From: Oligoflexales bacterium
Lineage (GTDB): Bacteria; Bdellovibrionota_B; Oligoflexia; Oligoflexales; JAPPIL01
Assembly: GCA_965215515.1 (NCBI GenBank)
Contig: OZ244057.1
Coordinates: 1,152,001 to 1,216,000 of the forward strand
DNA length: 64,000 nt
Reading direction: 5' to 3'
Positions 10,649 to 40,793 of the stretch are shown piece by piece. Numbering within the stretch: the stretch's first letter is position 1; every line of letters begins with the position of its first letter. The notes beneath the pieces were generated by a model. It was not told the origin of the DNA, made no database searches, and was given only the letters and a program-made list of their open reading frames with translations. The translations under genes and the position numbers were made by a program.

Positions 10649-10736
10649 GTGCAGCTGCCGCATACCGCGAATTGCGGGGGTTGATAGCATGTGGCAGGCT
10701 GATTGATTTGGGCTAACAGATTCTCGCGTGGGAGAG

Positions 10737-10765: not shown

Positions 10766-10795
10766 GATACAACAATGAGGACTATGGAGGATGTT

Positions 10796-11170: not shown

Positions 11171-11186
11171 TTTTAGGAGGGCGTAA

Positions 11187-11917: not shown

Positions 11918-12090
11918 TTTCTTTCCTCGCCCCCACGACAGCCTAATCCACCGCGATGGCAGACATAGATAACTGTCCCTATACCCGCTATACCTATCCA
12001 CAACACGGTATTGTTGCGCCTGCCGAGGCGTTTCTTTATTCCCTCTGCGATTAGTTTGACCGTCCGCTGGTCGCTCCCCATGCGGGAAGC

Positions 12091-13001
12091 CCTGAGTTCC
12101 GTGGGTAGGGCGCTTAATTTAATTTTTTGGGCGACGGAAGGCCTGATTTTGCGGTGTTTTGTCAGTCTTCCTTTTTGTAGTGCCTGACCAACTTTTTCTA
12201 TTGGCAGAGGTTGTGGGGGGTGCTACGATGAGGGCATGTTTGTACGTAAGAAAACATCCCCCAGATCTAGCAGCATTGCAGTGCAAATCGTCGAGAACAG
12301 GCGGACGGGGAGGAAAAAAAATGACACACCCAAACAGAAAGTCCTGCGACACGTCGGCACTGCTGAGCATCCCCGCGCACTATACCAGATCTTCTCGCCT
12401 TCGCCGCAACGATCATGCAGCGCATGGAGCATGACAGCTCCCCCCTCTTCAGCGATCAGCCGTTCACTCCTTCGTCCCACAAGGGGCGACGCAACGAAGA
12501 TTTTGTCGATAAGATATATCGCGTGCTGGATCAGCTGGACAGCGGTAGAGTCAAAGATCTGATCCGCAGAGCAACGCTGGGCATTATGCAGGAGAAGGTC
12601 AGTGTTTGTTTTACGATGTTACCACGCTACATTGGGATGGCATCAGCGGGTATATTACCAATTCCAAGCAGCCCGAGGGGAAGGTAATAGCCTCTTACCG
12701 TCGCCTGTGGGAAATCGAAGAAGCTTTTCGCATTTCCAAACACGATCTCAAAATGCGTCCCATATTCCACCGCAAAGGCGATCGTATCAGGGCACATCAA
12801 GACAGGAGAGCTGTGCGGCACGCCTAACATAAAAGACTCCCCGCGGGCCAAAAACCTCTGCCGCATCGTCGGACTGAAATGCTCCTCTGCACCCTTTAAG
12901 CTCTAAATTACTGCGCAAAACTTGCGCACATGTAGTGCCCTACACAGGAAGCACATCCCTGTAATTACAGTATGTTGGGAAATTTACCCGCGGAACTCAG
13001 G
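12091..13001 (+). mobile_element. IS1634-like element, heavily deleted
   Basis: Ends CCTGAGTTCCGTGGG / CCCGCGGAACTCAGG; MFVRKK...VQIVEN.R...QKVLRHVG, FYDVTTL, YRRLWEIEEAFRISKHDLKMRPIFH. Confidence 0.85.
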
Positions 13002-13042
13002 ACAACATCGATGTTTCAGTTGCTAGGTGACAGGGTATACTA

Positions 13043-15158
13043 GGGCGTGTCGCCGTTTTGATTCTATTATTTTAACAACTCCCTAGTGTTGCGTGGCATA
13101 GCGTGGATGACCAGACAACAATGCATCCAAGTAAGAGCATGCCTTCGTAGTTTCTTTTCAGCTTTTCATATCGTGTGGCAATAGACCTGAAGTGTTTTAG
13201 CCTTGCAAATAAATTCTCAACCTTAGGCCTGAGTTTATATGCTTCTTTACAGAAAGACTCGTTCTTTTTACTAGAATTACTCCTTCTTGGTATGACAGGA
13301 TTGCCCCCGTTATTTTTGGTTATTTCTCTTATCTTATCATCATCGTAGCATTTATCAGCTCGGTAATGACAAAATCAACAGGTCGAGCCATACTGTCTGC
13401 TACCATACTAAAATGACGTTGCCAGCTTGAGGCAAATTCTCAAGCAATTCTTCGGCCATCACAGCGTCATGCACCTGCCCTTCGGTAATGACAAAATCAA
13501 CAGGTCGAGCCATACTGTCTGCTACCATACTAATCTTCGTCGTGTGGCCACCAACTGACTTGCCAATAGCGGCCTCTTCGCCTTTGCGAGTGGAGTTGCT
13601 CCCAAAAAGCGGACAGTCTACCCAGCCTGTTGAAACTCCATGTACATCCTAGGTGACATCATGCCAAGTGCTTTGTGTGGTGCAACGTTGTTGTATTCAT
13701 CAAACCAGACATGCAATTTTTGCTTGACCACATCTGCTGAACTCAAGTTACTGACATAGGCATAGTCTCGTTTAAAAGTTTTCACGAACGCCTCCGCCAT
13801 ACCATTGCTTGCGGGGCTGTATGGTCTCGTAGTACAAACATCAAAGCCCAGATACTTGGCAAACGTTGTCGTCTGCCTAGCAACGTAACAGGGCCATTAT
13901 CCGATAGCCACTGTATTCTGTGCGGCAATTCATCGCCAAAACGTGCACCTACACAGTCAACCATCAAGTCTCTAACGAGACCACCATCAACGCCGCATGT
14001 CGAGCACGCCCAGCTGATTACCTCACGATCGTGGCAATCCATGGCAAACACAACCTCGAGACACTCCCCGTTATCGCACTGGATTCTGAAAGTATCCGAA
14101 CACCATCGAGTGTTGCTCCTCAACGTGGCCACCTTACCTTCGTGAACCCTTGTTGGCCTCGACGCATGCCTTCTCAACAGAAGATTATTGCGCTTCATGA
14201 TCCTGTAAACACGTTTATGATTGACCGCTGAAACAGCAAGGTCTCGTCGCAGCATGGCAGTCACCCGACGATACCCATAGGTGACCTTCGTGCGGATGAT
14301 CGCTAAAATACGCCGCAGAACGCTGCTGTCGCTCTTTTTCTGCCGCGAGAGCCTCTCCGAGTTACCCCTCATCTGCTTGTAGTAGTTAGACCTCGATGCC
14401 CCTAAAGCACGACAAATAGCCTTCACTGGAAACCTTCCACCCCTTGCAATGGTTTGTACGAAATCAACTTTTTTTTTCTGGCCACGAGCGAGACCGACAT
14501 GCCTGGTTGATAGGTTTCCATGACTATGGCCTGCTTTTCCGCTGGCCCCCACATCCGCCTTTTCCTGGTTAGAGAAAGCGGAACATCACCTTGCCGTTGC
14601 TCTGCAACAACGGCCGCTCCCTCTCTATCGGGTGCCTCCGAACTTACGAAACGATCACTAACCATAACTGAACTCCTCTACGTGAATTGTTAGAAGCCGA
14701 TAGGGTGTCCGCTTTTTACGGGGGCATCTACAGCGAGCACCGCTGCTGTGTTGATGTGCCTTGACGATCGTAGCGTCTATGGACACGTTGCCCAGATCAC
14801 AATGTACCAGATAGCTGTCAAAGACAGATTGCAGCTTACCGCTCTTTCCTCAGTCCGTAAAGCGTTTGTGCAGTGCTCGCCAGTCGCCGTATTTTTCAGG
14901 CACACATCGCCACGGACACCCTGACTTTAGCTTAAAAAATACCACGCACAGTCAGACGCAGCCTCTTCTTGCGATACACGCCCGCCTCCAACAGTTTGTT
15001 TTTAAGTATTGACCATTGTTCATCTGTGAGTACAATGCCTCTCATGGGCAGACCTCTGGAAATTATTGTCATGTCTTTCCATATGATGCAGGTTTGCCCT
15101 ACTAATTACAAGTGATTAGCACACACAAAAAATTATTAAACGAAACGGCGACACGCCC
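13043..15158 (-). mobile_element. IS5-family copy D, full span, interrupted by an IS3 element
   Basis: Both ends next to CTAG; collinear with copies A and B. Confidence 0.9.
13591..14732 (-). mobile_element. IS3-family (IS2-like) element, degenerate, with 5-bp target duplication GCGAG
   Basis: TG...CA imperfect IRs; OrfA RRMWGPAEKQAIVMETYQPGMSVSLVAR; OrfB YGYRR, NHKRVYR, RWCSD, WLSDNG, AEAFVKTFKRDY; GCGAG at 13586-90 and 14733-37. Confidence 0.92.
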
Positions 15159-15211
15159 TAGTCAGGCCTTCTAAAGGCATTATCTTGGCATCACCAACTC
15201 CAACATCTATA

Positions 15212-15274
15212 TGAACTCCTATACGTGATTGTGAGAAACCGATAGGGTGTCCGTTTTTTACGGGAGCATCTGCA
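15212..15274 (-). mobile_element. Diverged IS3 left-end stub overlapping the lipoprotein stop
   Basis: TGCAGATGCTCCCGTAAAAAACGGACACCCTATCGG... Confidence 0.8.
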
Positions 15275-16508
15275 CGATGTCGCGGTAGATATGGCGGTAA
15301 TCGTTTTCGTCGTCAATCGAACCGAGATAATCTACCAAGCGTTGTCCGCCACCGTCGATGGCGTAGTTTTCAAAATCCGACCAATCTACTCGTATCTTCA
15401 TCGTCTTTTCCCTAAGTTCAGCATATCTTTCGTGATACATACCAACAGTTGAATCCGCGGGAATCAGTAAAGGTTTGAGTTCTGTTGCCGATGCCCTTTC
15501 GGATCGGAAAACATAGTCCGGATACGGATATCGAAACAGATCACCATCCGTAGATGTTAAGCCGTAGAGACGATAACGGCGTTCAAGGGTAGCGCGTTGA
15601 CCGTGCAGATAACCTAAATCTCGCAAAATTTGTTCAATATCGGGCATGGTGCACAGATGGCTGACCACACAGAGCGTTGAGGGTAGTGAGGCGAGAACTA
15701 CGACAACCAGGAACGCATCTTCTCTGAGCCAAGATTGGCCACATTTCACTTTGCTAGCAGCATCGTAGGAATGTGTTGAAATTAAACCGTTTTTCATTTT
15801 CCGGTATTGGACGAACAGCTTACCGTCTATGTCTAGCCGGACGGCACCGTCTGCTAGCTCTACATAGCTGAAATCACGACCTGATTGATCAGTGTAGTTG
15901 CTCGTCCCCGGTTCGGGAAGTGTCGCCTTCAAACTCAAATCAGAAGTATGAAAATCGGTCAGCGCGGTCGTTATCCTGTTCAGAGGGCGTTGGTAATATC
16001 CGCCCGGCACACCGCGGCCGGGACCATGATACTTGCCGTCTCTTGCTAGGAGGCGTTCTAGGATCGTCTGTTCAAAAGCTGCTTCTAGTGCGGTCACCGG
16101 ATCTGGGGTCGAGTTTTTGGTAATGACGGGTTGAATGCAGTAATCACCGATCAACGCGATTTGGTAGTTGCTACCTGCAATCTGATCGGGTAGTTCTCTC
16201 AGCAAAGCGAGCATTTTTTCTGTCTGCTTTTTATCTCTCTGGGCGTAAAGACCCTGCGGGCTATAGCGATGTTGTAAAGAAGGGTCGACAACTAGCAACA
16301 CGTCTAGCGGGGGTAACTCAACTTGAGCTGTTGCCTCTTGAGCTGTTGCCTCTTGAGCTGTTGCCTCTTGAGCTGTTGCCTCTTGAGCTGCTGCCTCTTG
16401 AGCTGCTGTTTTCTGGTCAGTGACCAGTCCACTCACTTGACACGCGATCGCAGCCGATAACAAACCGGTACCGACCAATCTCGATTTCATAATCCCATCC
16501 CCAATCAT
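15258..16508 (-). CDS. vWA-like lipoprotein with AQEAT repeats
   Basis: MKSRLVGTGLLSAAIAC lipobox; LDVLLVVDPS; similar to genes at 32361 and 33424. Confidence 0.7.
   Translation of the reverse strand: MIGDGIMKSRLVGTGLLSAAIACQVSGLVTDQKTAAQEAAAQEATAQEATAQEATAQEATAQVELPPLDVLLVVDPSLQHRYSPQGLYAQRDKKQTEKMLALLRELPDQIAGSNYQIALIGDYCIQPVITKNSTPDPVTALEAAFEQTILERLLARDGKYHGPGRGVPGGYYQRPLNRITTALTDFHTSDLSLKATLPEPGTSNYTDQSGRDFSYVELADGAVRLDIDGKLFVQYRKMKNGLISTHSYDAASKVKCGQSWLREDAFLVVVVLASLPSTLCVVSHLCTMPDIEQILRDLGYLHGQRATLERRYRLYGLTSTDGDLFRYPYPDYVFRSERASATELKPLLIPADSTVGMYHERYAELREKTMKIRVDWSDFENYAIDGGGQRLVDYLGSIDDENDYRHIYRDIVQMLP
16322..16407. repeat. 15-bp coding tandem repeat (CTTGAGCTGTTGCCT), about 5.7 copies
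   Basis: Directly visible; encodes AQEAT. Confidence 0.95.
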
Positions 16509-16591
16509 TGTTTACCCCCAAGGTCGATTTGGTTATCGGTCGTATTTTGTATTTTTTTAGTTTTTTCTGAGTTCCGTGGCATTGTTGTCTG

Positions 16592-16673
16592 TGTAGATGC
16601 CCCCGCAAAAAGCGGACACCCTATCGGCTTTTAACAATCACGTAGAGGAGTTCAGTTATGGTTAGTGATCGTT
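16592..16673 (+). mobile_element. Orphan IS3 left-end stub (82 bp)
   Basis: Matches the left end through ATGGTTAGTGATCGTT. Confidence 0.9.
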
Positions 16674-17384
16674 CCGCATCTGGATGTGTTGCAAGGCACG
16701 TTCAAGCAGAGTGAATTTGCTGCCGACTTGACCCAAGTTGGGCATGGCACAGCCACACCTGAGTATAGCGAAGCACAAAAATTGCTAGGTTTGTGCATGC
16801 CCAACCATACTATTGCTAACTACGAGGATGTGCTAAAGAGTTGCGTCTCACTCATCTTGAGGAGTTATACTCGTGGGCTTTGTTCGTCACAAACAAAGAA
16901 GATTTGCGAGAAGAGTATGACCAAAGAGCTAGCTCTTACCTACATCCTGATAAGGCTGGAACCTGTATCACTACTGAAAAGAATTATCAAGATGGCCTGC
17001 CCACCAAAGGGATTATCTGCTGATTTCTTTGCAGGGTGTGCCAGTACTATTAGTGCAGCACATGAACTTAATTACAAGTGGCTTGGCTGCGATGTCTCTA
17101 AAGATGCTATTGCTGTTATTCGCAAGCGTATGGTCAAAGAGCATAAACTGAGAGTTGACGTAATCAGGGTTGGTACTTTGTCTAGAAAAGAAATCTATAA
17201 GCTTAGTCCCTTTGAGTTTGAAAAGAAAATGGTATCATTATTGCAAAAAGCTTTGCTAAAACTGCTTATGAAGAGGTTGATCGCTTATTTAATGAAGAAA
17301 GGTTGTCAATTGATCTTGTTCCTAGCGACGACATCATACGAGATGCGGCATAGACCCAAAACCCTCAAACCAAAATACTTTTAG
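16674..17384 (+). pseudogene. Chimeric remnant: DUF499-like ATPase N-terminus + N4/N6 DNA methylase C-terminus + Mrr-like piece
   Basis: PHLDVLQGTFKQSEFAADL; LLKRIIKMACPP.G..ADFFAG...AAHEL..KWLGCD; LSPFEFE. Confidence 0.65.
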
Positions 17385-17751
17385 TATAGACAATGCCTTT
17401 CTTGCCCCAAAAAGTAACAGGTGGGTCGATAACTTTAACAATCTCAACATGCCAACCCCATTTTGGTTTCTTCCATGCCCAGGGTGAGTTTTTATCTGTG
17501 CGGTGGTAATGATAATCGGCATAGAAAGTTTTGCGGTTGGGGTATTTTAAGCACTTGGTGAATTTGATGATAGCTGTAGCACGAGACTTGAACTTACCTC
17601 TTTGGCCTGGGGTTTCGATAAGTAGCATCTCCTTGTTAAGATAATGTGGTGGGAGAGGATAAGTGCGAGTTTCAATGATTTTTTTGCCTGCAATGATTTC
17701 TCTGGAGATAGGCCATTGAATGTTGATACCTGTGTAGGTTTTTTTAGTCAT
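17365..17751 (-). CDS. ASCH/PUA-like domain protein
   Basis: GINIQWP...IIAGKKIIETR (GxKxxExR signature), WGW; overlaps upstream stop by 8 nt. Confidence 0.75.
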   Translation of the reverse strand: MTKKTYTGINIQWPISREIIAGKKIIETRTYPLPPHYLNKEMLLIETPGQRGKFKSRATAIIKFTKCLKYPNRKTFYADYHYHRTDKNSPWAWKKPKWGWHVEIVKVIDPPVTFWGKKGIVYTKSILV

Positions 17752-19132
17752 GATGGTTGAGGGGGCGATGCAAAGTGCTTTTGTCGTAAGGCTTGAGGCA
17801 CTTGTTGTTAGTGTGTTTCATGCGCACATCCCAAGTTATATCACGCGCGGTTTTGGTTTTAGCAAACTTCTCGACGCGATCTATGGCATTGCAACAATCC
17901 TTCTTATTAGACCACAGGTCTTGATCTTGCCAAAAATGACTTTCGCCATTGCCGATGTAACAGGTGGTGAATTGCATGCCTCTTTGTTTACACTTGGCAT
18001 GAATGCGTTCATAGTAGGCTCTGATCTCGGCATCGCTATAGTGAAAGTCTCGTGATTTTTTCTCGGTGAAGATCGCCGTCTTTTTAGTATCGTCGCGGTA
18101 AAATTCTCGCAAATTTCGCCCGCTAGCCTTTTCTATTTGATTGAGAGAAAAACTCGAAAGTCTGACGATACCCGCTAAAATCGCTGGCACGCCGTGTTCA
18201 GCAACAGCATCAACTATCTCAAAACTGGAATAGTGGAAAGGCTCAGGCATATTGTTACGATCAAAGTTAGGATCAGTGAAATAACCATCGGGATAGATAG
18301 GAAAGAAGGGGTTAAGCCTTGCCGTTGTCCAAAAGCCATTGCGCACCAGCTTTTGTAAAGCCAGCAATCGCCGCTTAGCGCTGGGTGCACCTGGCTCTAT
18401 CTGACGGTTCATGGCATCGTCAATCGAAGCAATACTCATCTGTATTGAACAAAGATCAGCACGTAGCAACTGCATATATTCATCGTGGGCAATCAAATCG
18501 GAACGCGTAAAGATGATATAAGGATAATCGTAGTAGTTGAGAATTTTGAGCAGTTCTTGTGTGACTTGGTATTTCTTATCTATAAACATGAAAGAATCAG
18601 ACATCGAGCCGATGCGCAGTGGCACACGCATCTTAAGCATTTCTCGCCAGCGAGACATGTTATCGGTCTCAAAGGCATAGTAAAAAGTTTTCCAGATTTC
18701 AGTAATATCGACAGGCATGGGGAAAGGACGATTCCAGTAGGCATGCACGGTAAGTTCAGCCTTGGCATAGCAGTAGACACAGTTGTGAATACAGCCCCGC
18801 CCATAAGTATCGACTTCAAAAGCATAGAGGCATTGCTGGCAAGTGTTGTGACTGTTGACCAGCTTAAAGGGACTTTGAAACACCACCCCGCCGCGTGGTG
18901 GACGAGCCGCAAACCTAGTTTCTAGCCGTTTATAGATCTCAAAATCGAATTCACAAGGATAGTTAGACAGCTTGGCAAGCTTCGTTGCTCGCTCAGCAAT
19001 CCTATCGAACTTGGGTGTCGCAGGCTGTGGCGGCCTGTCCACACGAGGGAAGGGGATAACATTACTGACACTGCTGGGGGTAAGCGTATCCATAACGATA
19101 CCAACGTATGCCTCAACAGCCCCTGCTGTCAA
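17744..19132 (-). CDS. Radical SAM protein, spore-photoproduct-lyase-like family
   Basis: DTYGRGCIHNCVYCYA (CxxxCxxC), IGSMSD, IFTRS, IEPGAPSAKRRL; start may be MDTLT at 19093. Confidence 0.85.
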   Translation of the reverse strand: MTAGAVEAYVGIVMDTLTPSSVSNVIPFPRVDRPPQPATPKFDRIAERATKLAKLSNYPCEFDFEIYKRLETRFAARPPRGGVVFQSPFKLVNSHNTCQQCLYAFEVDTYGRGCIHNCVYCYAKAELTVHAYWNRPFPMPVDITEIWKTFYYAFETDNMSRWREMLKMRVPLRIGSMSDSFMFIDKKYQVTQELLKILNYYDYPYIIFTRSDLIAHDEYMQLLRADLCSIQMSIASIDDAMNRQIEPGAPSAKRRLLALQKLVRNGFWTTARLNPFFPIYPDGYFTDPNFDRNNMPEPFHYSSFEIVDAVAEHGVPAILAGIVRLSSFSLNQIEKASGRNLREFYRDDTKKTAIFTEKKSRDFHYSDAEIRAYYERIHAKCKQRGMQFTTCYIGNGESHFWQDQDLWSNKKDCCNAIDRVEKFAKTKTARDITWDVRMKHTNNKCLKPYDKSTLHRPLNHHD

Positions 19133-19208
19133 GGAGAGGGGAGTTGTATAGGTATATTATCTCCAGTATGGAGCATAACTAGCTGACATTAATAGATTTA
19201 TACACAGA

Positions 19209-19260
19209 CGTAAAAAGCGGACACCCTATCGGCTTCTAACAATCACGTAGAGGAGTTCAG
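19209..19260 (+). mobile_element. IS3 left-end stub lacking its outer tip; marks the island right edge
   Basis: CGTAAAAAGCGGACACC...GAGGAGTTCAG. Confidence 0.85.
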
Positions 19261-19317
19261 GTACAACTTACCTGTTCAAATAGTTTATTTTTCTGCGTAA
19301 GATATGCTCACCCACTG

Positions 19318-20400
19318 GTGTCGAGTTTCTCGGTAGGGCTGCACCGTGTCAGGAAGGAGCGGGACGCATTGACGGAAGTTTTGCACCGCGCACTGCAGAC
19401 GAAGACTCTTACCCATGTTTACGCGTCCTGCGGATTTTTGCCGCAATCCCAGCCACGCTACCGCTTCACCCACCTGCCCGCGGCGCGTAGCGTTTTCGAC
19501 CTGGCCAGCCTCACGAAGGCGTTGGTAACCCTCCCCCTCTATACACACGCAGCACTGTCGGGAAAACTGTCCTTCGCATCTCCCGTCGCCTCTTTGCTAC
19601 AAGACAGCGAGCACGAGCTGTGCGACGCACTGGCACAGCTACGTATCGCTGACCTACTCGCCCATCGCAGCGGGTTACCCGCGTGGCGCAATTTCTGGAT
19701 CGGAATGCTGGGGAAAACACAGACCCTCACCACAGCAGACACCATCGCGCTGCTCAATCGCAGTGCAACCCACCTGCAGAACAGGCAACCACACTACAGC
19801 GATCTCAATTATATCCTGGCGGGTATCTGCTTGGAAATTTGGCAAAAAAAATCGCTCGCTACCCTATTCAGCGAATTTTACCGCACTCAGCTGCATTATG
19901 CCCCCCGCCTTTGTTTCGGTTTCTGTCCCGTTGCCCGTGAACGCACCGTGCCCAGTGCCTATTGCCAGATCAGAAAACGTCTCTTGCAAGGCGAGGTACA
20001 TGACGAAAATTGCGCTGCGCACGGCGGCGTAAGTGGACATGCAGGCCTCTTCGCGAGCGGCGATGATCTCGTCGCCTATCTGCGCACACTGTTCACCCAC
20101 GCAGTCGGTCGAGAAATTTTGCGCCACAACAAAAACCTGCTCGCTAGCACTACCTCCCCTCAGCTGCTGGGTATGCAGCGCGGGGCGAACGGCGTACTGT
20201 CCGCACAAGGCACGCTGCTCGGACATCTCGGTTTCACAGGTGTTTCTTTTTGGCTCGACCTGCGGCAAGACAGCTATCAGGTGTTGCTGAGCAACCGCAC
20301 GATCAACGCACGCCTCGTCCCCCACTTCCATACCCTCCGCCAACAAGTGTACCGCACACTGCAGGAAAAATTGGCTGACAGTTCAGCCGCCACTAAATAA
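19318..20400 (+). CDS. Serine hydrolase, beta-lactamase/class C-like family
   Basis: FDLASLTK, LLAHRSGL, YSDLNY, GEVHDEN, GHAGLF, GHLGFTG; start uncertain. Confidence 0.88.
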   Translation: MSSFSVGLHRVRKERDALTEVLHRALQTKTLTHVYASCGFLPQSQPRYRFTHLPAARSVFDLASLTKALVTLPLYTHAALSGKLSFASPVASLLQDSEHELCDALAQLRIADLLAHRSGLPAWRNFWIGMLGKTQTLTTADTIALLNRSATHLQNRQPHYSDLNYILAGICLEIWQKKSLATLFSEFYRTQLHYAPRLCFGFCPVARERTVPSAYCQIRKRLLQGEVHDENCAAHGGVSGHAGLFASGDDLVAYLRTLFTHAVGREILRHNKNLLASTTSPQLLGMQRGANGVLSAQGTLLGHLGFTGVSFWLDLRQDSYQVLLSNRTINARLVPHFHTLRQQVYRTLQEKLADSSAATK

Positions 20401-32360: not shown

Positions 32361-33314
32361 TCAGCGCGCGATGCTATAACGCATATCGAGGCACATACCT
32401 GCTGGTAATTTACTATTGATAAAAACTGTGCGGGCATCTTTCTTTTTGTTTACCTGTAGATTAGCATGACTAACATGCCCTGTTCGCCCTGAACGGCTCG
32501 GATTCCAAGCAACTTCGGCATCTAAATACTCGCCGCTAAACACCATCGCCCATCCCTCAAGAGCACGGTAACCGCGCAAGAAAAAATTACTACGCAACAC
32601 AGAGGCAAGGTCACGTGACATTTCTTGCAACGGCAGAGTAAAATCCTCGCTACGCAGTGAAGCATAGCGATGGATAATCTTTTCCCCTGCAGCATTTTGC
32701 CAGGCAACAAGGGCACTGCCCTCACCGTCTGTATCGAGCAAAGCGTAGACACGGTTGTTGTTGCCCACCTCCAACATTTTCTCCACGTTAGTGCGTGTCT
32801 CTGAGGCGAGATCGGCATCTGTGACAATGACAAAGGCACGTACACTATCTTCGTTGTCGCTTTTAGTTTTGGTTATCTGTGTTAAATCGGTTACTGCTTG
32901 GGCGAATTTTTTTTCGTAATCAAAACTGTTCTTGTATTTAGTAATAATTGCACGCGGGTAATTTTGTGCATGCAAAGTTGTGACAGCTACGCTCCAATTG
33001 CTGTTGATGACATGTTTCAGCATCGCTGCTAGCGAGGTCGATAGTTTCTGGCGAGTTCTCGTCAGTGTCGCACTGTCATCGACTAAAAAAACAATCTCTA
33101 CCCGATCACTAGCAGTTACATCGGCATAAAGCGACTCAGTATAAATTTTCGTGGCTACGTTAGGCAGGGGAGCGCTGCTGCTTAATGATAACTGCCTACG
33201 GCTTTCGGCATTCCCTGTTGTATAAATGTAGGGAATGTCTCCATCTTCGTCAAGGTAGGCATCATCATCTCCGCACGCGACCAACAACCCCAGTATGAGC
33301 ATGATATGTGGCAC
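32361..33314 (-). CDS. vWA-like lipoprotein
   Basis: LLVAC lipobox; EIVFLVDDS, FVIVTD. Confidence 0.7.
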   Translation of the reverse strand: MPHIMLILGLLVACGDDDAYLDEDGDIPYIYTTGNAESRRQLSLSSSAPLPNVATKIYTESLYADVTASDRVEIVFLVDDSATLTRTRQKLSTSLAAMLKHVINSNWSVAVTTLHAQNYPRAIITKYKNSFDYEKKFAQAVTDLTQITKTKSDNEDSVRAFVIVTDADLASETRTNVEKMLEVGNNNRVYALLDTDGEGSALVAWQNAAGEKIIHRYASLRSEDFTLPLQEMSRDLASVLRSNFFLRGYRALEGWAMVFSGEYLDAEVAWNPSRSGRTGHVSHANLQVNKKKDARTVFINSKLPAGMCLDMRYSIAR

Positions 33315-33423: not shown

Positions 33424-34422
33424 TCAAGGCTGATGGCTATAGGTAACGACAATTTTGTTGGTATTAGGTGGCAAGGCAGTTAGAATAAATAGTTTCTTGC
33501 CTACTATGCCGTATTCGTTTTTGCTCAGTATTTTTTCACTATCATCATCGTGAAAGATAACAACTTCCGAGGCTTCATCATCGTGCAGTCTTTTGAGCTG
33601 ATACTTATATTGCACAATGTCGCTCAGATCGCTGGAGATGGCCTTGAGAGTTGTGTCATAGTTATCTGTATTGTATGGTTCGTGGCGAGTAAAGATGGTT
33701 TCCCCACTTTCGTCTTGCCAGGCAATAAATTTATCGTTTTCGTTCTCGTCTAGAAACCCGTATACTTTCGCAGTTTTGTGAGGAATTCTAATTAGACTCA
33801 GAAAATCGTAAAGATCTTGTATCTCGCAGCCCGCACTTGCACCGCCGATACTCACATCGCATTGGTGATCTTCGTCGGTAATGATCAGGATACCGAGAGC
33901 AGAATTTTCGCGCACGAGGTAGCGGGGATGGTCATCGTCGCAGGTGTTGTCGTCGGTTATCACAGGCATGCCGCGCAGACCTCTGATAGCCATGAAGATT
34001 GCCTGTTCGGAGTTGGATGGTTTAATGGCATCTATTGCTTGGCGATAGACATCTTGGTAGTTAGAGGTTTGGGCTGTTATAATGGCGGCAAAGCAGCTTG
34101 TCATGTCGGTGCTGGTAATGCCTATCTGCCAATCTCGTGCCTTGATGTTTTCGAGCAAAGGTAGGAGTTTACGGGCAACTTCGGCTTTTTGCCCCCGCAT
34201 CGAGTCAGAGCCATCGATGATGAGCAGAATATCGAGCTTATCTGTCGCAGAAATGTCAGGGATAAAGGTCTCTTGGTACAACTCCCCGCTCAGGTTATCG
34301 GCATTGAGATTACTGATAAATTTAGTTTGTTTGGCGCAGGAAAGCAGCAGTGTAGCTGACAACAGTAGGCAAATTTCTCTCATCTCCACCTCGCAGACAA
34401 ACTCCAGCCGCGGGGTCGGCAC
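33424..34422 (-). CDS. vWA-like lipoprotein with MIDAS motif
   Basis: LLLSC lipobox; LDILLIIDGSDSM, ILIITDED; likely start MREIC. Confidence 0.75.
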   Translation of the reverse strand: MPTPRLEFVCEVEMREICLLLSATLLLSCAKQTKFISNLNADNLSGELYQETFIPDISATDKLDILLIIDGSDSMRGQKAEVARKLLPLLENIKARDWQIGITSTDMTSCFAAIITAQTSNYQDVYRQAIDAIKPSNSEQAIFMAIRGLRGMPVITDDNTCDDDHPRYLVRENSALGILIITDEDHQCDVSIGGASAGCEIQDLYDFLSLIRIPHKTAKVYGFLDENENDKFIAWQDESGETIFTRHEPYNTDNYDTTLKAISSDLSDIVQYKYQLKRLHDDEASEVVIFHDDDSEKILSKNEYGIVGKKLFILTALPPNTNKIVVTYSHQP

Positions 34423-34527
34423 ATAGTTGGCAAAAATTTAGTTTCATCAAGCTTTGCAGACTGATAACTTAAGGTAACTATTGTTTAAGACGATATGACA
34501 GCCAACACGGACGCGGATAGGTAGGCG

Positions 34528-37500
34528 ATGATCTACTACTTCGGCTATGGCTCAAATATGAACATGACCTCTTTGCAGGCCAAGGGAGTTGAGCCGAGTT
34601 TCTCCGATCCCGCTGTTTTGCAAGATTGGGAACTGGCATTCAATGTCTGTGATTTTTTTCGCATAGAGGGTGGCACAGGCAACATTCGTCGCGCCGCAGG
34701 CAAGGAAGTACACGGGGTAGTGCATAGTTGTCATGCCGATAGTTTGCGTCGTCTCGATGAGCTAGAAGCTTATGGCATATCTTATGACCGTATCGCAGTA
34801 GATGTTACCAGTTATGATGGGCAACGCCACAAGGCTTTCGCTTACGTAGGTTTGTGTGACAGAATGAAGGATGGTCTGCAGCCTTCACATCGCTACCTCA
34901 ACATCATGATTGAGGGAGCGAGAAAGATGGAGTTGGAAGATGCTTACATCAACAAGCTGAAACGCATAGAAGTTAGGCCCGCACCAAATTACGGCCCTTT
35001 TAATTTTTCTAAAAAAAACAACAAAGTGTTCAGCGCGGCGGAGCTGGCACAGTTACCGCACCATACAGCTTTGGCGGGGGCGGTGTTTAACATGCAAAAC
35101 GCACGGGAAGAGCATGCTTATCTGAAAAAATTTTTTAGCGGCAAAGATATGACAGTTTTTTTTCTCAAGCGTATGGACATAAGTAGTGGCGAAGAAACCC
35201 TTGAACATGCAACAGCAGTTGGGTTATCCAACTTACAAAAGCGCTATCTCAATGCTTATCTGCATGAATTCAAACGTGAATATGAATTCATTGGCTGTAT
35301 GAATTATCGTATAGATCTTTCCTATCGCTCACCGACACCGCGCCTCGATCTTAGCAATCCGAGTCGTTCTGCGTCATCACGGGTGATTTTACAAACAGCC
35401 GAGCTTGTCAATGACATTTTGGGGCATGAAAATCTTGGTTTTTTGTCGAGTGATCGTGGCCTGATACCAGGCAAAGCTTTTCCTGAGCGTTTACCGCATT
35501 ATTTTGATGCTTGGGAGGAAATTACTGAAAACCTTCCTATGCATTATACTTCTCTACGCTTACGTCATGTTGTTGATGCAATGCCTGTTTTGCGTGCTGA
35601 TGATAGTAAACTCGATGGCAATTGTCTCATACGTGCTTGTGCTTTATTGTCGATGTTGTCGCATGCTTATTGGTATGTGCGTCGTTATCCACCCGCACAT
35701 GGCTTGCCTGTGCAATTGCGTAAACCGTGGGAAACAGTGCAACAGCGTTTGCGTCGCCCTGTTGGCGTGCTACACTATATCGATCTTATCGTATATAATT
35801 GGCAGTTCAAGCAAAAAGATCGCGAAGATAATTTTGATTTAAGTAATCTTGATTTACTTTTTCCTACTGTCAACAACCCTTCTGAGCAAATTTTTTATCT
35901 TACTCAGTTAGAAATACTGGCACACTGTTCTCCTATTGTGCCAGCTATTGTGAGAGCACAGGAAGCCATCGTCCAAAATGAGCTCGAGGCTTTGAAAGAT
36001 TCTTTACGCACTATTATTATTTGTTTAAAAAAAATCGTGCGCAAATCTTTGTTCAACATTGATCCTAATCGCTACAGCAAAAATTATGTTAATCATGTTG
36101 TATGGGCAAAAACAGTCGCGCCTTTTGCGGTGCCTTTTCGTGCCAAAGCGCTGGGAGCAAGTGGCACATCTTCCCCGATTTTTAATATTCTCGACACGTT
36201 CTTTGGACGCATGCACCATAAAACTTTTCTCGGCAAAGAGATAAAAGCACTACGGGAAACTTATCCCGTCTTCTGGCAAAAATTTATTGAAGCGGTGTCA
36301 CAGATTTCTTTGCGTGATTACGTTCATCGTATCGATGATCCTACCCTCACTAATCTTGTCAGTGAAGCTGTTGATATCTATGCTGGGGAGCATGGTTTTC
36401 TCGGTCGGCATCGCATGAAAGTTTTTGGTTACTTGGAGATGGCATTTAAAGTTGGTAGAGATGTAACTATCGGAGGCTTTGCAGGCAAATTCAAGGATCG
36501 AGAGCATGAGCACGTCGATGCTCAATTGGAGTGGTCACGACTTGAGCGTTTAGAAACGTTTCCTCGTGATTGTTATTTTGGCTACATAAAAGCTGTCGGA
36601 CAGACACACAACAATGCCACCGCGAATGTGAAACATGTTGTCATCGATGTAGAAGGTCTCGGTGTGCGTTATGAGCCAGGCGATCGCTGTTTAATTTTAC
36701 CTGAACATAGTGAGGAAATAATTGCTGCGACTATGCGAGCATTACAAGCTAAGGAAAAGGAGAAAAAAATAATTCTCTCGGAAGAGTGGCGAAAGGCTAT
36801 CAAGTTGCGTTATGGCTATGCTAAGGCACAAGAACTACCGCTAGAAGTTTTTCTGCGTTTTGCCCAGCTGCGCCCTGTATCTTTACGTATTGCACATGCT
36901 CTGTATACTGTAAGTAACAGTAATTTTTTGCGCAAGGAAATAAGCGCTCAGACTACGGCACGCTTTGAGGTCTGGGATGTGCTCAAGATGTTGAGCAGCG
37001 ACGGGTTTGATGTGCGTAGACTGCTCGATAGCAAGCCCGATGATCCTGCCTACCTTGCACAGGTTTTGCCCCCTGAAAATTTTAGAAACTACACGATCGC
37101 TTCTGCCATGGATGCCAGTGAGGGCGATAGTGCACATGAAATTCATCTCACGGTGGGGGTTGTTAGTTATGAAAATAATGGCAGGAAGTGTGTGGGCACT
37201 GGTTCCGGTTTTTTAGCTCGCAGTCTCGGCCGTGATGATCCGATTTCGTTTAGAATCGAGCATCCACCGCGTTTTAGTTTACCTGCTGATCCCCGCACGC
37301 CTATCATGATGATTGCAGGGGGGACGGGGGTAGGGGCATTTCGTTCTTTTATTTTTGAGCGCATGCGAGACCCACAGGCGGGCGAGACTTGGTTGTTATT
37401 TTTTACGCAATCACCAGAATATTTTTACTATCAAGATGATCTCTTACATGCTTTGAGCAATGATTTTCTTAAATTATTTGTCAAATTTTCTGCTGCCGAT

Positions 37501-39909
37501 ATTGCCGTAGATGTAGAAAAGAGTGCTGGAGAAGGTCGCAAATTTTTCTATAAAAAGAGCAAGCGTGGGCGGGTGGAAGATTTTTTTGCTGCCAAGAAAC
37601 ATCGTGAAATCTTTTGGAATTTTCTTCAGCAGGATAAACCAGCCCCCCAGGTGTATATTTGCGGGCGGACGCGTTTTGCTAGAGATGTGCATAAAGCGTT
37701 ACAGGCTTTGTTTTATCGCGGCCTGCGCGGGAGCGAGCAAGCACGTCGTAAAGAGGCCTTGCACATGCTGGGAAGGCTGTTTGCCAGTGGTGGCTTTAAG
37801 CAAGAAACTTTTACCAATGCCATTCCCGTGTCCAATAAAGAAAAGCTTATCAAGGTTTCAGAACTCGCACAGAAAAACGATTCGGAGGGGGAGTGCTGGT
37901 TGGCCATCGACAATGGTGTTTATGATCTCACAGAATTTCAACATATTCATCCTGGTGGTCATACTATTTTGCGCAGCTATTATGGTCTTGATGCTAGTAA
38001 AGGTTATTGGCGCGCACATCGCCGCCTTGATGTCGATACGATGCGTGAAATATATCGCCTCGGCCGTCTATACCTACCTAATTTTGCCAACAAAAATGTG
38101 CATGGTGTATCATTACGTAGTATCTATGGCTCGTGGACAGCAGCACTTTATACTTTGGTCGAGATGGAAAATAGTTTCATGATTGATGTCTCACTGCAAA
38201 ATTGTAGTCTTGTTGCGACTCAAGCAGCAGAGTTACAAACACCTTACAAAACAGAAAAGGCTATTGACACACATATACGTTTTTTGGAAAATTTTCTTTC
38301 ACCACTAACTAGTGTCATTATCCCATCATTGTGGAAAACCACCTCGCTACTCAGCAACAGCAAAAAAATGCACAGTGAGATACGGAGAAAGATATCTTTG
38401 CTCAATAACTACACTGCTGCACATACGTGTAGTGAGATCCCACAGCTTTTGCAAAACAGACTAGACACGTTGGTATCTGCGTCCGTAAGCGGTGAGTTAC
38501 AGCAACTCAATCTCCATCGTTTAACTGCTACTCTTGATTTTTTTACTGCTCTTGACCAAAAAACCCTTGCTGAACTAAAACAGCAGCTGACAGCAGGCAC
38601 AGCATTGTTTGAAAATAATTTAACTGAAGTCGATGAACACATGCTAGCTATACGAAAAATTTTTCTTAGCATGGTAGCGATAGTGCAGAATTTTTGGAAA
38701 AATATGGCTACACATTGTAAAAAAGCAGGATGGTTGACGAAAGATAGTGTCTTGATAAAAAACAGATGGGATAAAAAACAGGGTATGCGTGCTAGCGCGG
38801 TAGTGAGTTGGCTCTTAGGTGATGCGCTATATTTAAATTCTACCGAAGAGTTGATAGTGGCACTTGTCGGGCAACTTGAACCTCTAGTCAAGATTAATCG
38901 TATCAGTCTTGACATTCACACCGTGCATCCCGAAGTATTTGTAAAAAATTTAATTTGGAAACGGAATGATGGCATCGAAGCGACTTTGTTATCACATGAT
39001 CAGATAAAATCGCAACTGTTCAGACAAAGTCCTGTCGCCAAAATATACAACGGCTCAGGCACGATAAGGATAAAAACTGCTCGCGACCCCTCAACATTTC
39101 CTTTGCTTCAGGAGTTGATGAAGCAGGGCTGCACCGACTATATTATTTTCCCCATGCGGTATACTCGTGGCGGTCGCTCCTATATTTCTTATACCACTGA
39201 GCAACCAGATGGTTTTAGCGATGCGGAAATAGAAGTTTTGGAGCAGGTATGCCCTGCCTTAGCGCGTCGTTTAGAAATTGAATTCTGTCATTTTTCTATT
39301 CACAGTTTACTGCAAATTTATCTCGGTAAGTTAGCCGCTTCACGGGTACTGAGAGGTGAATTTAAGCGGGGATATGGAGAAACCATCGAGCCAGCTATTT
39401 GGTTATGTGATCTGCGTAATTATACAAGTATGGCGATGAGTTGTGATGAACACAAAGTAGCTGCGGCACTTGATTTGTTTTTTGAATTGGCTGCGGACAC
39501 AATTGCACAACACAATGGTGATATTTTAAAATTCATGGGTGATTCCATGTTGGTAATTTTTGATGATAAAAATAAGAAAGAATCTTGTCGCAAAGCATTC
39601 AATGCCTCGCTCATGATGTTGGCTAAGTTAAATAAACAAACGGCAACGGAGACCAAAGTTAGCATCGCGATGCATGTGGGCAGTGCTATTTTCGGCAATG
39701 TAGGTGGTTGCGGACGGTTGGATTTCACTATCGTAGGCAAGGAAGTAAATTACACCAGCCGTCTTGAGCCGTGGTGCAAAGCACTAGGTGTGCCTTTAAT
39801 TATGAGTGATAAGTTCGTCAAAACCGCCGAACTCAACAATACACGTTATCTCGGTAAGTTCAGCTTGAAAGGCTTCCCCACCCTTGCGCCACTCTACACC
39901 GTTATTTAA
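34528..39909 (+). CDS. 1793-aa multidomain protein: GGCT - IDO-like heme dioxygenase - FAD/NADPH reductase - cytochrome b5 - GAF-like - class III cyclase
   Basis: YFGYGSNM; LSHAY, YNW, GASGTSS..F..LD.FFG, FLGRH...GYL; YEPGD, RNYTIAS, GTGSGFL, IAGGTGVGAFRSF, YICG; WLAID..VYDLTEF...HPGG; CDLRNYT, KFMGD, GNVG...RLDFTIVG..VN..SRLE. Confidence 0.85.
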   Translation: MIYYFGYGSNMNMTSLQAKGVEPSFSDPAVLQDWELAFNVCDFFRIEGGTGNIRRAAGKEVHGVVHSCHADSLRRLDELEAYGISYDRIAVDVTSYDGQRHKAFAYVGLCDRMKDGLQPSHRYLNIMIEGARKMELEDAYINKLKRIEVRPAPNYGPFNFSKKNNKVFSAAELAQLPHHTALAGAVFNMQNAREEHAYLKKFFSGKDMTVFFLKRMDISSGEETLEHATAVGLSNLQKRYLNAYLHEFKREYEFIGCMNYRIDLSYRSPTPRLDLSNPSRSASSRVILQTAELVNDILGHENLGFLSSDRGLIPGKAFPERLPHYFDAWEEITENLPMHYTSLRLRHVVDAMPVLRADDSKLDGNCLIRACALLSMLSHAYWYVRRYPPAHGLPVQLRKPWETVQQRLRRPVGVLHYIDLIVYNWQFKQKDREDNFDLSNLDLLFPTVNNPSEQIFYLTQLEILAHCSPIVPAIVRAQEAIVQNELEALKDSLRTIIICLKKIVRKSLFNIDPNRYSKNYVNHVVWAKTVAPFAVPFRAKALGASGTSSPIFNILDTFFGRMHHKTFLGKEIKALRETYPVFWQKFIEAVSQISLRDYVHRIDDPTLTNLVSEAVDIYAGEHGFLGRHRMKVFGYLEMAFKVGRDVTIGGFAGKFKDREHEHVDAQLEWSRLERLETFPRDCYFGYIKAVGQTHNNATANVKHVVIDVEGLGVRYEPGDRCLILPEHSEEIIAATMRALQAKEKEKKIILSEEWRKAIKLRYGYAKAQELPLEVFLRFAQLRPVSLRIAHALYTVSNSNFLRKEISAQTTARFEVWDVLKMLSSDGFDVRRLLDSKPDDPAYLAQVLPPENFRNYTIASAMDASEGDSAHEIHLTVGVVSYENNGRKCVGTGSGFLARSLGRDDPISFRIEHPPRFSLPADPRTPIMMIAGGTGVGAFRSFIFERMRDPQAGETWLLFFTQSPEYFYYQDDLLHALSNDFLKLFVKFSAADIAVDVEKSAGEGRKFFYKKSKRGRVEDFFAAKKHREIFWNFLQQDKPAPQVYICGRTRFARDVHKALQALFYRGLRGSEQARRKEALHMLGRLFASGGFKQETFTNAIPVSNKEKLIKVSELAQKNDSEGECWLAIDNGVYDLTEFQHIHPGGHTILRSYYGLDASKGYWRAHRRLDVDTMREIYRLGRLYLPNFANKNVHGVSLRSIYGSWTAALYTLVEMENSFMIDVSLQNCSLVATQAAELQTPYKTEKAIDTHIRFLENFLSPLTSVIIPSLWKTTSLLSNSKKMHSEIRRKISLLNNYTAAHTCSEIPQLLQNRLDTLVSASVSGELQQLNLHRLTATLDFFTALDQKTLAELKQQLTAGTALFENNLTEVDEHMLAIRKIFLSMVAIVQNFWKNMATHCKKAGWLTKDSVLIKNRWDKKQGMRASAVVSWLLGDALYLNSTEELIVALVGQLEPLVKINRISLDIHTVHPEVFVKNLIWKRNDGIEATLLSHDQIKSQLFRQSPVAKIYNGSGTIRIKTARDPSTFPLLQELMKQGCTDYIIFPMRYTRGGRSYISYTTEQPDGFSDAEIEVLEQVCPALARRLEIEFCHFSIHSLLQIYLGKLAASRVLRGEFKRGYGETIEPAIWLCDLRNYTSMAMSCDEHKVAAALDLFFELAADTIAQHNGDILKFMGDSMLVIFDDKNKKESCRKAFNASLMMLAKLNKQTATETKVSIAMHVGSAIFGNVGGCGRLDFTIVGKEVNYTSRLEPWCKALGVPLIMSDKFVKTAELNNTRYLGKFSLKGFPTLAPLYTVI

Positions 39910-40793
39910 ATGGCATCCCTACCGCGCAAAGAAACATGCAGTTTTTGCAGTGCCACGAAAGCGTAGTGCGAAGTGGCCATCAGCTCACGACCAGGCACGA
40001 AGATATACCTCTGCTGCTTAACCGCCCGCATGTGCTTCCAACCTGAGGTTCTGTTCAAACGTGCGATGGCCGCTTGTCGTCGGTAGATGCCCGTCGGAAT
40101 GACGATAACATCTGGTTGGAGGGTGGCTAAAATTTCCGCGCTGAGCACACGGAAGCCACGAATTTTCCGCTGCGCGGCAAGGTTTATCCCCCCCGCCGCG
40201 GTGACAAGTGCATCGAACAACGTGCCTCGCCCCATCACCGTATTGTCGGCAAAAAAATTCAACACCCGCGGTCGCCGCCGAGGACGGCTGGTCACGATGT
40301 GCACCAACGTCTCCCGCAACTGTTTAATCAGTATCCGAGCACGAGGTTGTGCACCTACCCTCTTGCCGAGCTGCGCGATGTTCGCTAAAATGTGCTCCAG
40401 CCGTGTGGCTTTTTTTAATACCAGGGTGGCGATGCCCAGATGTTGCGCGAGATTGACGAACTCAGGACGGTTGAACACCGAGTAGATGATCAGATCAGGA
40501 CGCAGACTGATGACATGCTCGACACTGGTCGCACGCAGCGTCGCAGGCAAGCGCGGTAGGTGATGGATGTTGCTGTGCAGCTTGTTTTTCGCTAGAGCAG
40601 AGACCGCCCGCAAACGCGGTGTGTCGCCGATGAGCGCGACGAGAATTTCGTCGGCAGTCAACGCGGTCGAGACGACACGCTGTGGTATGGTGGCGGACAA
40701 GACACCGCTCAGGCAACAAAGGAACAGCATGAATACACGGTGCGCAGCACACGGCAGAGTTTTTTTTGCTAAGGCAGCAACCAGCATGCGCAC
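39906..40793 (-). CDS. BtuF-like cobalamin/iron ABC substrate-binding protein
   Basis: PQRVVS, E.VISLRPDLI, AGGINLA, LQPDVI. Confidence 0.8.
   Translation of the reverse strand: MRMLVAALAKKTLPCAAHRVFMLFLCCLSGVLSATIPQRVVSTALTADEILVALIGDTPRLRAVSALAKNKLHSNIHHLPRLPATLRATSVEHVISLRPDLIIYSVFNRPEFVNLAQHLGIATLVLKKATRLEHILANIAQLGKRVGAQPRARILIKQLRETLVHIVTSRPRRRPRVLNFFADNTVMGRGTLFDALVTAAGGINLAAQRKIRGFRVLSAEILATLQPDVIVIPTGIYRRQAAIARLNRTSGWKHMRAVKQQRYIFVPGRELMATSHYAFVALQKLHVSLRGRDAI

Follow-up and report, generated by a model that had tools for sequence, protein, structure and literature searches.

A predicted self-sufficient IDO-type hemoprotein fused to a GAF-adenylate cyclase in an Oligoflexales bacterium

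The gene described here lies in a stretch of 64,000 nucleotides from an Oligoflexales bacterium (assembly GCA_965215515.1, contig OZ244057.1, positions 1,152,001 to 1,216,000 of the forward strand), which is called the window below and from whose first letter positions are counted. It is a single uninterrupted open reading frame (ORF) on the forward strand, 34528..39909, and codes for 1793 amino acid residues without an internal stop. The encoded protein consists, in order, of a GGCT-like domain, a segment of about 140 residues, an IDO-like heme domain, an FAD/NAD(P)H module, cytochrome b5, a helical bundle, a GAF domain and a class III cyclase. Residues 1-1413 belong to a widespread, uncharacterised family of "self-sufficient" IDO-type hemoproteins, and the ORF represents a true fusion, specific to this lineage, of two adjacent genes. 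All parts of the protein are of known kinds. Its core is a common variant, as yet undescribed, and the fusion of this core to the cyclase is a one-genome event that exposes a functional link. By a modest balance of probability, we consider the protein to be a self-sufficient NAD(P)H-FAD-b5-heme oxygenase tied functionally to a GAF-regulated adenylate cyclase.

Domains and key residues of the protein

The positions of the domains are collected in Table 1. A preliminary description of this DNA, made from the letters alone, had proposed a domain order, coordinates and motif positions that were found to be right from the GGCT-like domain to the class III cyclase by comparison with Pfam, NCBIfam, the PDB and Foldseek. 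Its IDO-family domain, its P450-reductase-type module lacking a flavodoxin, its cytochrome b5 with HPGG near position 37950, its GAF-like region and its set of cyclase residues are all retained on the evidence given in this section. What it called a helical linker is in fact a conserved helical-bundle domain, and only its possible partial b5-like segment has been dropped.

Table 1. Features of the 1793-residue ORF, with positions in the window
Feature	Residues	Window positions	Strand	Evidence
GGCT-like domain (gamma-glutamyl cyclotransferase)	1-150	34528..34977	+	Pfam GGACT/AIG2_2, residues 4-144; human GGCT alignment
Segment between GGCT-like and IDO-like domains	151-287	34978..35388	+	Aligns with GGCT-bearing relatives
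IDO-like heme domain	288-690	35389..36597	+	Pfam IDO; family profile against PDB
CysJ/CPR-type FAD/NAD(P)H module	694-1098	36607..37821	+	Pfam FAD_binding_1, NAD_binding_1; NCBIfam cysJ; PDB profile
Cytochrome b5 domain	1108-1185	37849..38082	+	Pfam Cyt-b5 (PF00173), residues 1111-1181, E 1e-16
Family-specific helical-bundle domain	1186-1413	38083..38766	+	All-helical model, pLDDT 90.8
Fusion junction: six codons WDKKQG and retained ATG 38785-38787	to Met1420	38767..38787	+	Direct sequence reading
GAF sensor domain	about 1421-1564	38788..39219	+	Model pLDDT 88; Foldseek
Long signalling helix, GAF to cyclase	about 1565-1610	39220..39357	+	Helices at model residues 145-179 and 181-188
Class III adenylate cyclase catalytic domain and stop codon	about 1611-1793	39358..39909	+	Pfam Guanylate_cyc; alignment with solved cyclases

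The IDO-like domain is recognized by Pfam IDO (PF01231) over residues 307-610 with E 7e-32 and 111.1 bits, compared with a cut-off of 26, and the family profile finds IDO2 (E 5e-30) and IDO1 (E 3e-26) in the PDB. A stand-alone relative of 419 residues (L065) covers the same region. Conservation was counted in an alignment of 96 sequences. The residue H628, located in the fragment FLGRHRMKV, is invariant in 96/96 members and is the candidate proximal heme ligand; the stretch GFLGRHRMKV is the most conserved of the whole family. On the distal side, the fragment F456-Y-L-T-Q460 aligns with F-F-L-V-S of IDO1. Phe456 is kept in 96/96 members and Gln460, which occupies the column of IDO1 Ser167, in 95/96. 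The fragment GASGTSSP, residues 543-550, aligns with the GGSAGQSS-type loop of IDO.

The proximal His of IDO1, which we take to be His346, would lie 10 residues past the last aligned column, compared with 13 for H628. The pattern H-x3-V-x2-Y is presumably common to IDO1 and the region of H628, and it is treated here as a lead only. The roles of the IDO1 residues mentioned in this text are those generally assumed. For residues 560-701 no match was obtained in the PDB by phmmer at E <= 10, and neither this piece nor a shorter one matched Pfam. A search started from the stand-alone relative of 419 residues gave only this subfamily among the 120 matches listed, with no canonical IDO bridging the two groups.

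The FAD/NAD(P)H module follows the IDO region with only about four residues between them (690 to 694). NCBIfam cysJ matches residues 694-1063 with E 4e-38 at model positions 247-569 of 597, which is the C-terminal part only. Pfam NAD_binding_1 covers residues 928-1056, and FAD_binding_1 reaches 32.1 bits over residues 696-895, just below its cut-off of 32.3. In the PDB the family profile matches CysJ (1ddg, the FAD/NADPH fragment) with E 3e-54 and the CPR, BM3 and NOS reductases with about 1e-33 to 1e-40. The motifs RxYS/T, GxGxxPF and CG define modules of the CysJ/CPR type. Their counterparts RNYT (853-856), GGTGVGAF (931-938) and YICGR (1043-1047) are present here and conserved across the 96-member alignment, as found in a CysJ/CPR FAD/NAD(P)H module. 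No flavodoxin or FMN domain occurs among the Pfam or NCBIfam matches. Because of this, because the cysJ match starts only at position 247 of 597 and because residues 690 and 694 leave no room for another domain between them, the protein is not a diflavin reductase. The cytochrome b5 domain that follows contains the HPGG motif (nucleotides 37948-37959) and both axial histidines, His1141 of HPGG and His1164, each kept in 96/96 members.

At the N-terminus, the GGCT-like domain aligns over its full length with human GGCT (2pn7/2i5t, E 1.3e-8), with YGSNM (residues 7-11) placed on YGSNL and LDELE on LDEQE. Glu80, inside the fragment LDELEAYG, is presumably the catalytic Glu of the GGCT fold, and by sequence the domain has both the YGSN motif and this Glu. 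The four residues Tyr7, Gly8, Ser9 and Glu80 are kept in 63/63 family members that have a GGCT-like domain, and these make up about two thirds of the family (63/96). The segment behind this domain had been proposed as a possible partial b5-like one. Pfam gave no match for residues 145-301 at E <= 10, and a comparison with residues 1100-1191, the b5 region of the present protein itself, showed no similarity (E 1.1 over 6 residues); this candidate was rejected.

The helical-bundle domain comprises about 230 residues and was modelled, with the family alignment, as residues 1183-1420 with a predicted local distance difference test (pLDDT) score of 90.8. It contains a polar cluster of highly conserved residues: Glu1212 and Asn1215 (96/96 each), Asp1220 and Arg1251 (95/96 each) and His1249 (94/96). 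A match for its fold was sought with Foldseek against the PDB, where the best E was 0.06, and by VIA-align against 48161 chains, where the best Z of 8.3 is within generic helical-bundle noise; neither search gave a significant match.

Residues 1421-1628 were modelled with pLDDT 88. The top Foldseek matches of this model in the PDB are GAF domains (3k2n, 3o5y, 3p01 and PDE5/6), with E down to 7e-8 and a probability of 1.0. Pfam GAF has no match in the present protein; one homologue carries Pfam GAF_2. The cyclase domain is matched by Pfam Guanylate_cyc at residues 1624-1758 (E 5.5e-8) and aligns up to the C-terminus with Cya2 (2w01), CyaB (3r5g), OaPAC (4yus), bPAC (5m27) and CyaC (1wc0). In the alignment with these solved class III cyclases (PF00211), Asp1628, Lys1668, Asp1672, Thr1734, Asn1741 and Arg1745 are all present, and the fragment KFMGD corresponds to residues 1668-1672. 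We take Asp1628 and Asp1672 to bind the metals, Lys1668 and Thr1734 to bind the substrate, and Asn1741 and Arg1745 to act on the transition state. The Lys/Thr pair points to ATP as the probable substrate of the cyclase. As a stand-alone family the GAF-cyclase unit is common, with 843 representatives at E <= 1e-30. A complex prediction for the helical domain with the GAF domain scored 0.01, compared with a mark of 0.32, which is evidence neither way.

The fusion junction and the unfused relatives

The closest homologues, 78-81% identical and 1417-1426 residues long, align with residues 1-1413 of the present protein and then end; in the unfused relative P0002, for example, the last aligned residue is 1413. 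In the three relatives read as DNA (G001, G002 and G003), two of them of the same genus and one of the same family, the last 373 residues correspond to a separate ORF of 374-378 residues directly downstream. The ATG of the cyclase gene overlaps the stop of the IDO-type gene (ATGA) in G001 and G003. The same ATGA is found in G002, where it is followed by a remnant of about 125 nucleotides and then by the real cyclase start. Four further pairs of IDO-type and GAF-cyclase proteins come from contigs of matching length, and the genes of these pairs may be adjacent.

Since the enzyme and the cyclase are two coupled neighbouring genes in the closest relatives, the fusion points to a link between the enzyme and cyclic AMP (cAMP) signalling. 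The preliminary description had suggested that turnover or redox state is coupled to cAMP, and the part of this that stands is a tie between enzyme and cyclase independent of the fusion, with the cyclase gene directly downstream in 3/3 relatives. Its fused architecture is a different matter, being confined to the present genome among the 95 homologues of the IDO-type family and the best 150 of 34309 cyclase matches.

An imperfect 16-nucleotide tandem repeat (38754-38769 and 38770-38785, 12/16 identical, with two A6 runs) overlaps the junction. Judged from these letters, a 16-nucleotide duplication, which would shift the reading frame by +1, is a plausible origin of the fusion. Such a junction could also mean that the fusion has no functional significance, being either a sequencing or assembly error or a very recent neutral or mildly harmful indel, with the two parts working as they do in the relatives. 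We consider this quite unlikely. It would agree with the occurrence of the fusion in one genome, with the two A6 runs and the frame-shifting repeat at the junction, and with the start codon that the former cyclase gene has kept. It would also agree with the frameshift and the remnant in G002 of the same genus, which indicate either that the region changes readily or that such assemblies carry indels.

However, the Logan contigs of three samples from one study (X1, X2 and X3), produced by an assembler different from that of the assembly, span positions 34300-40100 and match across the junction with 0 differing letters and 0 gaps at depths of 37, 8.7 and 3.5. The in-frame join to the cyclase, for which a check at the read level had been recommended, is thus reproduced in the contigs of three samples, and an artefact at the junction is unlikely. 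Moreover, both parts are intact over their 1413 and 373 codons and have lost none of the motif residues, and the position of the cyclase downstream in 3/3 relatives, with the ATGA overlap in two of them, argues for a functional link. A further run from another study (X5) gave identical pieces, none of which crosses the junction; one low-depth contig of this run skips 69 bases at 39378-39448.

Two features of the same-genus genome G002 should be mentioned separately. A frameshift splits its IDO-type gene into ORFs of 611 and 828 residues (L013, 9125-13404), and the remnant of about 125 nucleotides (L002, 1379-1504) duplicates the start of the cyclase gene. They may reflect decay or indel errors of the assembly.

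The wider family and its genomic surroundings

The whole-length search gave 95 homologues of 1013-1853 residues with IDO and b5, most of them also with the FAD/NAD module. A scan with one genome per species confirmed 99 loci, of which 80 were kept. They are spread over Oligoflexales, Poribacteria, Myxococcota, Bacteroidota, Chloroflexota, Actinomycetota and Bradyrhizobium. The closest loci are on two chromosomes named "Oligoflexales bacterium", 85-87% identical in the IDO region, and other hosts include Oligoflexus tunisiensis, Polyangiaceae, Aquimarina, Chitinophaga and Streptomyces. Every multi-domain member scanned has b5 along with IDO. First read from this one sequence, the NAD(P)H-FAD-b5-heme arrangement is thus a conserved one and not a product of chance.

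The bacterial members are modular in build. The simplest are IDO alone (419 residues, one Saprospiraceae locus) and IDO-b5 (about 700 residues, Actinomycetota). They are followed by IDO-FNR-b5-helical (about 1070-1160 residues), FHA-IDO-FNR-b5 (Chloroflexota) and GGCT-IDO-FNR-b5-helical (about 1420 residues), the last of which characterizes the present clade. In Oligoflexus and Myxococcota, GGCT-IDO-FNR-b5-helical is extended by a domain of about 130 residues to about 1560 residues. This extra domain (residues 1425-1563 of P0024) takes the place of the cyclase partner and has no Pfam match; the nearest Atlas clusters are STAS/SEC14 (0.91) and SpoIIAA-like (0.89), which is a lead only, given with neither an alignment nor an E-value. 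IDO-b5 proteins of about 630-670 residues also occur in ascomycete fungi of the genera Trichoderma, Pyrenophora and Parastagonospora (P0337, P0370, P0389 and P0399) and are 42-45% identical to the bacterial stand-alone form.

In the source records the family has only generic names, such as "cytochrome b5 domain-containing protein" and "sulfite reductase flavoprotein". The literature searched, whose coverage leaves out most subscription journals, gave no account of a fusion of IDO with b5, a reductase or a cyclase. The initial statement that no characterised protein has this architecture therefore agrees with the literature searched, but the architecture is not unique, as its core is common in the databases.

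The distribution among close relatives is much narrower. In 31 related genomes the IDO-like gene and the orthologous cyclase were found only in the family of the window (the window's genome, G000, and 3/3 others) and in 0/27 genomes of 15 other families of the order. The G+C content of the ORF is 0.436 compared with 0.571 and 0.561 in its flanks, so that the gene is indeed AT-richer than the backbone, as had been noticed at the outset. This family-restricted distribution and the low G+C content suggest that an ancestor of the window's family gained the pair.

The genome G000 consists of one contig of 2.18 Mb and is 93.9% complete. The present protein is its only IDO homologue and one of its two class III cyclases, and a ferrochelatase is present. 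A search of this genome for kynureninase, PF04199 formamidase and TrpA found none of them, with controls as expected. Since no kynurenine-pathway genes were found, the protein is not an entry to the kynurenine pathway, and this role was set aside. The organism may not make tryptophan.

The neighbours of the IDO-type gene were examined at 11 loci. In Chitinophaga solisilvae a complete trpEGDCBA operon directly follows the IDO-FNR-b5 gene on the same strand (L043, 9941-19155), and this is the sole link to tryptophan metabolism at these loci. In Streptomyces coelicoflavus the gene for a reductase-less IDO-b5 of 699 residues comes after that of an AraC/cupin regulator, and an arylamine N-acetyltransferase gene (PF00797) follows it directly (L083, 9923-12952). 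SpoIIE phosphatases are encoded beside the gene in a Poribacteria locus (L010) and near it in Oligoflexus (L018). The proteins from Anaerolineae (L046) and Anaerolineaceae (L049) have an N-terminal FHA domain, and in L046 the next gene codes for a cyclic nucleotide (cNMP)-binding protein. Thiol and redox genes (GSTs, a DCC1-like oxidoreductase and AhpC) are located nearby in L018 and L009, and an ankyrin-repeat protein is encoded near the gene in L013.

The main competing reading, possible but in our opinion doubtful, is that the IDO-FNR-b5-helical core is not an enzyme of metabolism but mainly a heme-based sensor of O2, nitric oxide (NO), redox state or tryptophan. The reductase chain would then keep the heme ferrous, and different lineages would swap the signalling modules: GAF-cyclase here, a STAS-like domain in the forms of about 1560 residues and FHA in Chloroflexota. 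Such a sensor would be consistent with the result that no kynurenine-pathway partner was found in the genome or at the 11 neighbourhoods, and with signalling modules that are fused or adjacent (GAF-cyclase, FHA in L046 and L049, SpoIIE in L010 and L018, and the cNMP-binding protein after L046). The STAS/SEC14 and SpoIIAA-like clusters nearest to the extra domain point the same way as a lead, but the STAS label comes with neither an alignment nor an E-value. A further parallel is that CYB5R3 reduces the ferric heme of soluble guanylate cyclase (sGC), according to one report (PMC7949132). However, the GGCT-like domain is enzymatic in type, with its catalytic Glu kept in 63/63 members, and the distal pocket is strongly conserved (Phe456 in 96/96, Gln460 in 95/96). 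Metabolic neighbours in two lineages, the arylamine N-acetyltransferase of Streptomyces and trpEGDCBA of Chitinophaga, also argue against a sensor. The more specific proposal, that the IDO-type heme senses tryptophan, an indole delivered as a gamma-glutamyl compound, O2 or NO and directly drives the adenylate cyclase, seems to us rather unlikely.

In the window itself, two weakly paralogous genes on the reverse strand, 32361-33314 and 33424-34422, lie just upstream of the ORF in the same AT-rich stretch. They code for proteins of 317 and 332 residues with lipoprotein-like N-termini and no Pfam family. Both have syntenic counterparts (67% identity) in locus L013 of the same genus, which also has, downstream, two larger ORFs with the same domain. 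On the other side, a Peripla_BP_2 gene (39906-40793, reverse strand), coding for a binding protein of the iron-siderophore, heme or B12 type, converges on the ORF; its final 4 bases overlap the end of the ORF, and the G+C content is back at the backbone level there. A second long stretch of lower G+C content (0.42-0.50 compared with 0.54-0.58 elsewhere) extends over positions 2001-20000.

Proposed mechanism and comparison with known systems

In the mechanism that we favour, NAD(P)H would reduce the FAD of the CysJ/CPR-type module, and the FAD would in turn reduce the fused cytochrome b5, which would replace the absent FMN domain as the one-electron carrier. The b5 heme would then reduce the IDO-like heme, and this heme would activate O2 towards an aromatic substrate that is probably either an indole or an arylamine. 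The chemistry could be that of a dioxygenase or of an NAD(P)H-consuming monooxygenase. The GGCT-like domain may release the substrate from a gamma-glutamyl conjugate. We guess at an indole-bearing or arylamine gamma-glutamyl substrate for three reasons: a GGCT-like domain is present, one family member has an arylamine N-acetyltransferase as its neighbour, and the Arg that would bind a carboxylate is missing. The cyclase would most likely report on the enzyme, either through binding of substrate or product by the GAF domain or through contact with the enzyme. The fusion would make the pairing of enzyme and cyclase obligatory, and dimerisation of the cyclase would turn the entire protein into a dimer.

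Which reductant serves IDO physiologically is a matter of long debate, with superoxide, b5 together with reductases, and CPR as candidates. Cytochrome b5 is reported as a physiological reducing partner for IDO enzymes in one paper (PMC4191572). Two others report monooxygenase activity within the superfamily, for MarE (PMC11904535) and for IDO (PMC12921851). The permanently fused reductase suggests that more than occasional reactivation is needed, and this would be so for a heme that autoxidises fast or for a reaction that uses electrons in each turnover.

Several observations weigh against this mechanism. A dioxygenase needs electrons for activation only, so that canonical IDO chemistry does not explain a permanent reductase. 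In all members scanned the Pfam IDO match ends no later than position 341 of the 412 in the profile, and the PDB IDO alignments end 13 residues before H628, so that no alignment to IDO1 or IDO2 covers this residue. Arg231 of IDO1 is presumably the residue that binds the carboxylate of tryptophan. In a stretch aligned with low confidence, the column corresponding to it has Tyr in 52, His in 37, Phe in 7 and Arg in 0 of the 96 members. In the genome, the negative results for kynureninase, PF04199 formamidase and TrpA are joined by another: no cAMP receptor of the PF00027 (cNMP-binding) type was found, with controls as expected. The 11 loci examined have no recurring metabolic neighbour. As for the fusion, 0/95 other homologues of the IDO-type family are fused, and none of the best 150 of 34309 cyclase matches also covers the helical domain. 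The event could be recent and neutral, and with the internal ATG retained a separate cyclase could still be made. Finally, X1, X2 and X3 may be the source of the assembly, and their library type is not on record.

These points bear differently on the two halves of the initial proposal of an NADPH-FAD-b5-heme enzyme acting on a Trp-like substrate. The electron-transfer architecture is conserved and stands, with NADH as well as NADPH a candidate donor. The Trp-like substrate does not fare as well, both from the Arg231 column, although the alignment there is weak, and from the genome, where kynureninase, PF04199 formamidase and TrpA were sought and not found.

Flavohemoglobin likewise combines a heme domain and a reductase of the FNR type, and one might suppose that the protein is a detoxifier, either an NO dioxygenase or a peroxide-consuming enzyme, with NAD(P)H re-reducing the heme at each turnover and the cyclase signalling nitrosative or oxidative stress. 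A permanently fused reductase would fit the use of one electron per turnover, and thiol and redox genes are located near the gene in L018 and L009. However, the heme domain has no sequence relation to globins, the IDO-type pocket for an organic substrate is strongly conserved, and the GGCT-like domain would have no role in such a scheme. We therefore regard a detoxifier as very improbable.

It is important to note what the self-sufficient oxygenase would offer. The existence of a natural family that joins IDO to b5, and in most members to an NAD(P)H flavoprotein as well, speaks on comparative grounds for b5 as the native partner of IDO. In such a self-sufficient protein, electron delivery, stoichiometry and dioxygenase or monooxygenase chemistry are open to direct measurement. 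This family is large, extends over several bacterial phyla and some fungi, and has only generic names in the source records. The cyclase fusion, together with the downstream cyclase in the relatives, gives a first functional handle and predicts that substrate, product or redox state controls cAMP. If the core were instead a sensor, the protein would be a bacterial single-polypeptide counterpart of sGC and CYB5R3, and its host an organism where the searches found no TrpA and no classical cAMP receptor. The wider family would in that case form a new class of heme sensors, maintained by a redox chain and equipped with signalling modules that can be exchanged (GAF-cyclase, STAS-like and FHA).

The present protein can be compared with IDO1 and IDO2, with which it has clear homology over about 300 residues, including the aligned loop and distal stretch. 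Cytochrome b5, reported as a reductant of IDO (PMC4191572), is fused in the present protein. The differences are considerable. The IDO-like domain is joined to b5, to an FAD/NAD(P)H reductase, to a helical domain and, in this clade, to a GGCT-like domain. For its C-terminal third, which includes the presumed proximal-His helix, there is no match to the Pfam profile or to the IDO sequences of the PDB. Gln occupies the Ser167 column, and there is no Arg in the weakly aligned Arg231 column. In addition, neither the surroundings of the gene nor the rest of the genome yielded a kynurenine pathway.

The FAD/NAD(P)H module is the same as in P450 BM3, NOS reductase, CysJ and CPR (E 3e-54 for CysJ and about 1e-37 for CPR and BM3), and as in systems of the P450 BM3 type the electron donor and the heme catalyst are on one polypeptide. 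In contrast to these systems, the present protein has no FMN domain, and the b5 located after the FAD module is the likely one-electron carrier. The catalytic heme domain here has the IDO fold, not the P450 or NOS fold. Ncb5or, assimilatory nitrate reductase and the fungal fused desaturases resemble the present protein in that b5 is covalently tied to an NAD(P)H flavoprotein and sometimes to a terminal catalyst. The known fusions, however, use an FNR of the b5-reductase type, while the one found here is of the CysJ/CPR type (FAD_binding_1) and its acceptor would be an IDO-type heme.

The pair of sGC and CYB5R3 offers a working analogy only, with a ferrous heme kept by a b5-reductase system and a class III cyclase under control (PMC7949132); that the state of the heme reaches the cyclase is for the present protein a matter of analogy. 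The heme domain here is IDO-like and not H-NOX, a family that does not occur among the Pfam matches at E <= 1 in the present protein. There is also no heterodimer with PAS and coiled-coil parts, and the cyclase residues point to ATP. The cyclase portion itself resembles the GAF-regulated cyclases of the cyanobacterial CyaB1/CyaB2 type and the catalytic domain of CyaB of P. aeruginosa (3r5g), with which it shares the GAF fold, the long helix, the class III domain, the Lys/Thr pair and both metal Asp residues. It differs from them in having a single divergent GAF domain without a Pfam match and in its location: in the relatives read as DNA its gene directly follows that of an IDO-type redox enzyme, overlapping it by ATGA in two of them, and in the present protein the two are fused.

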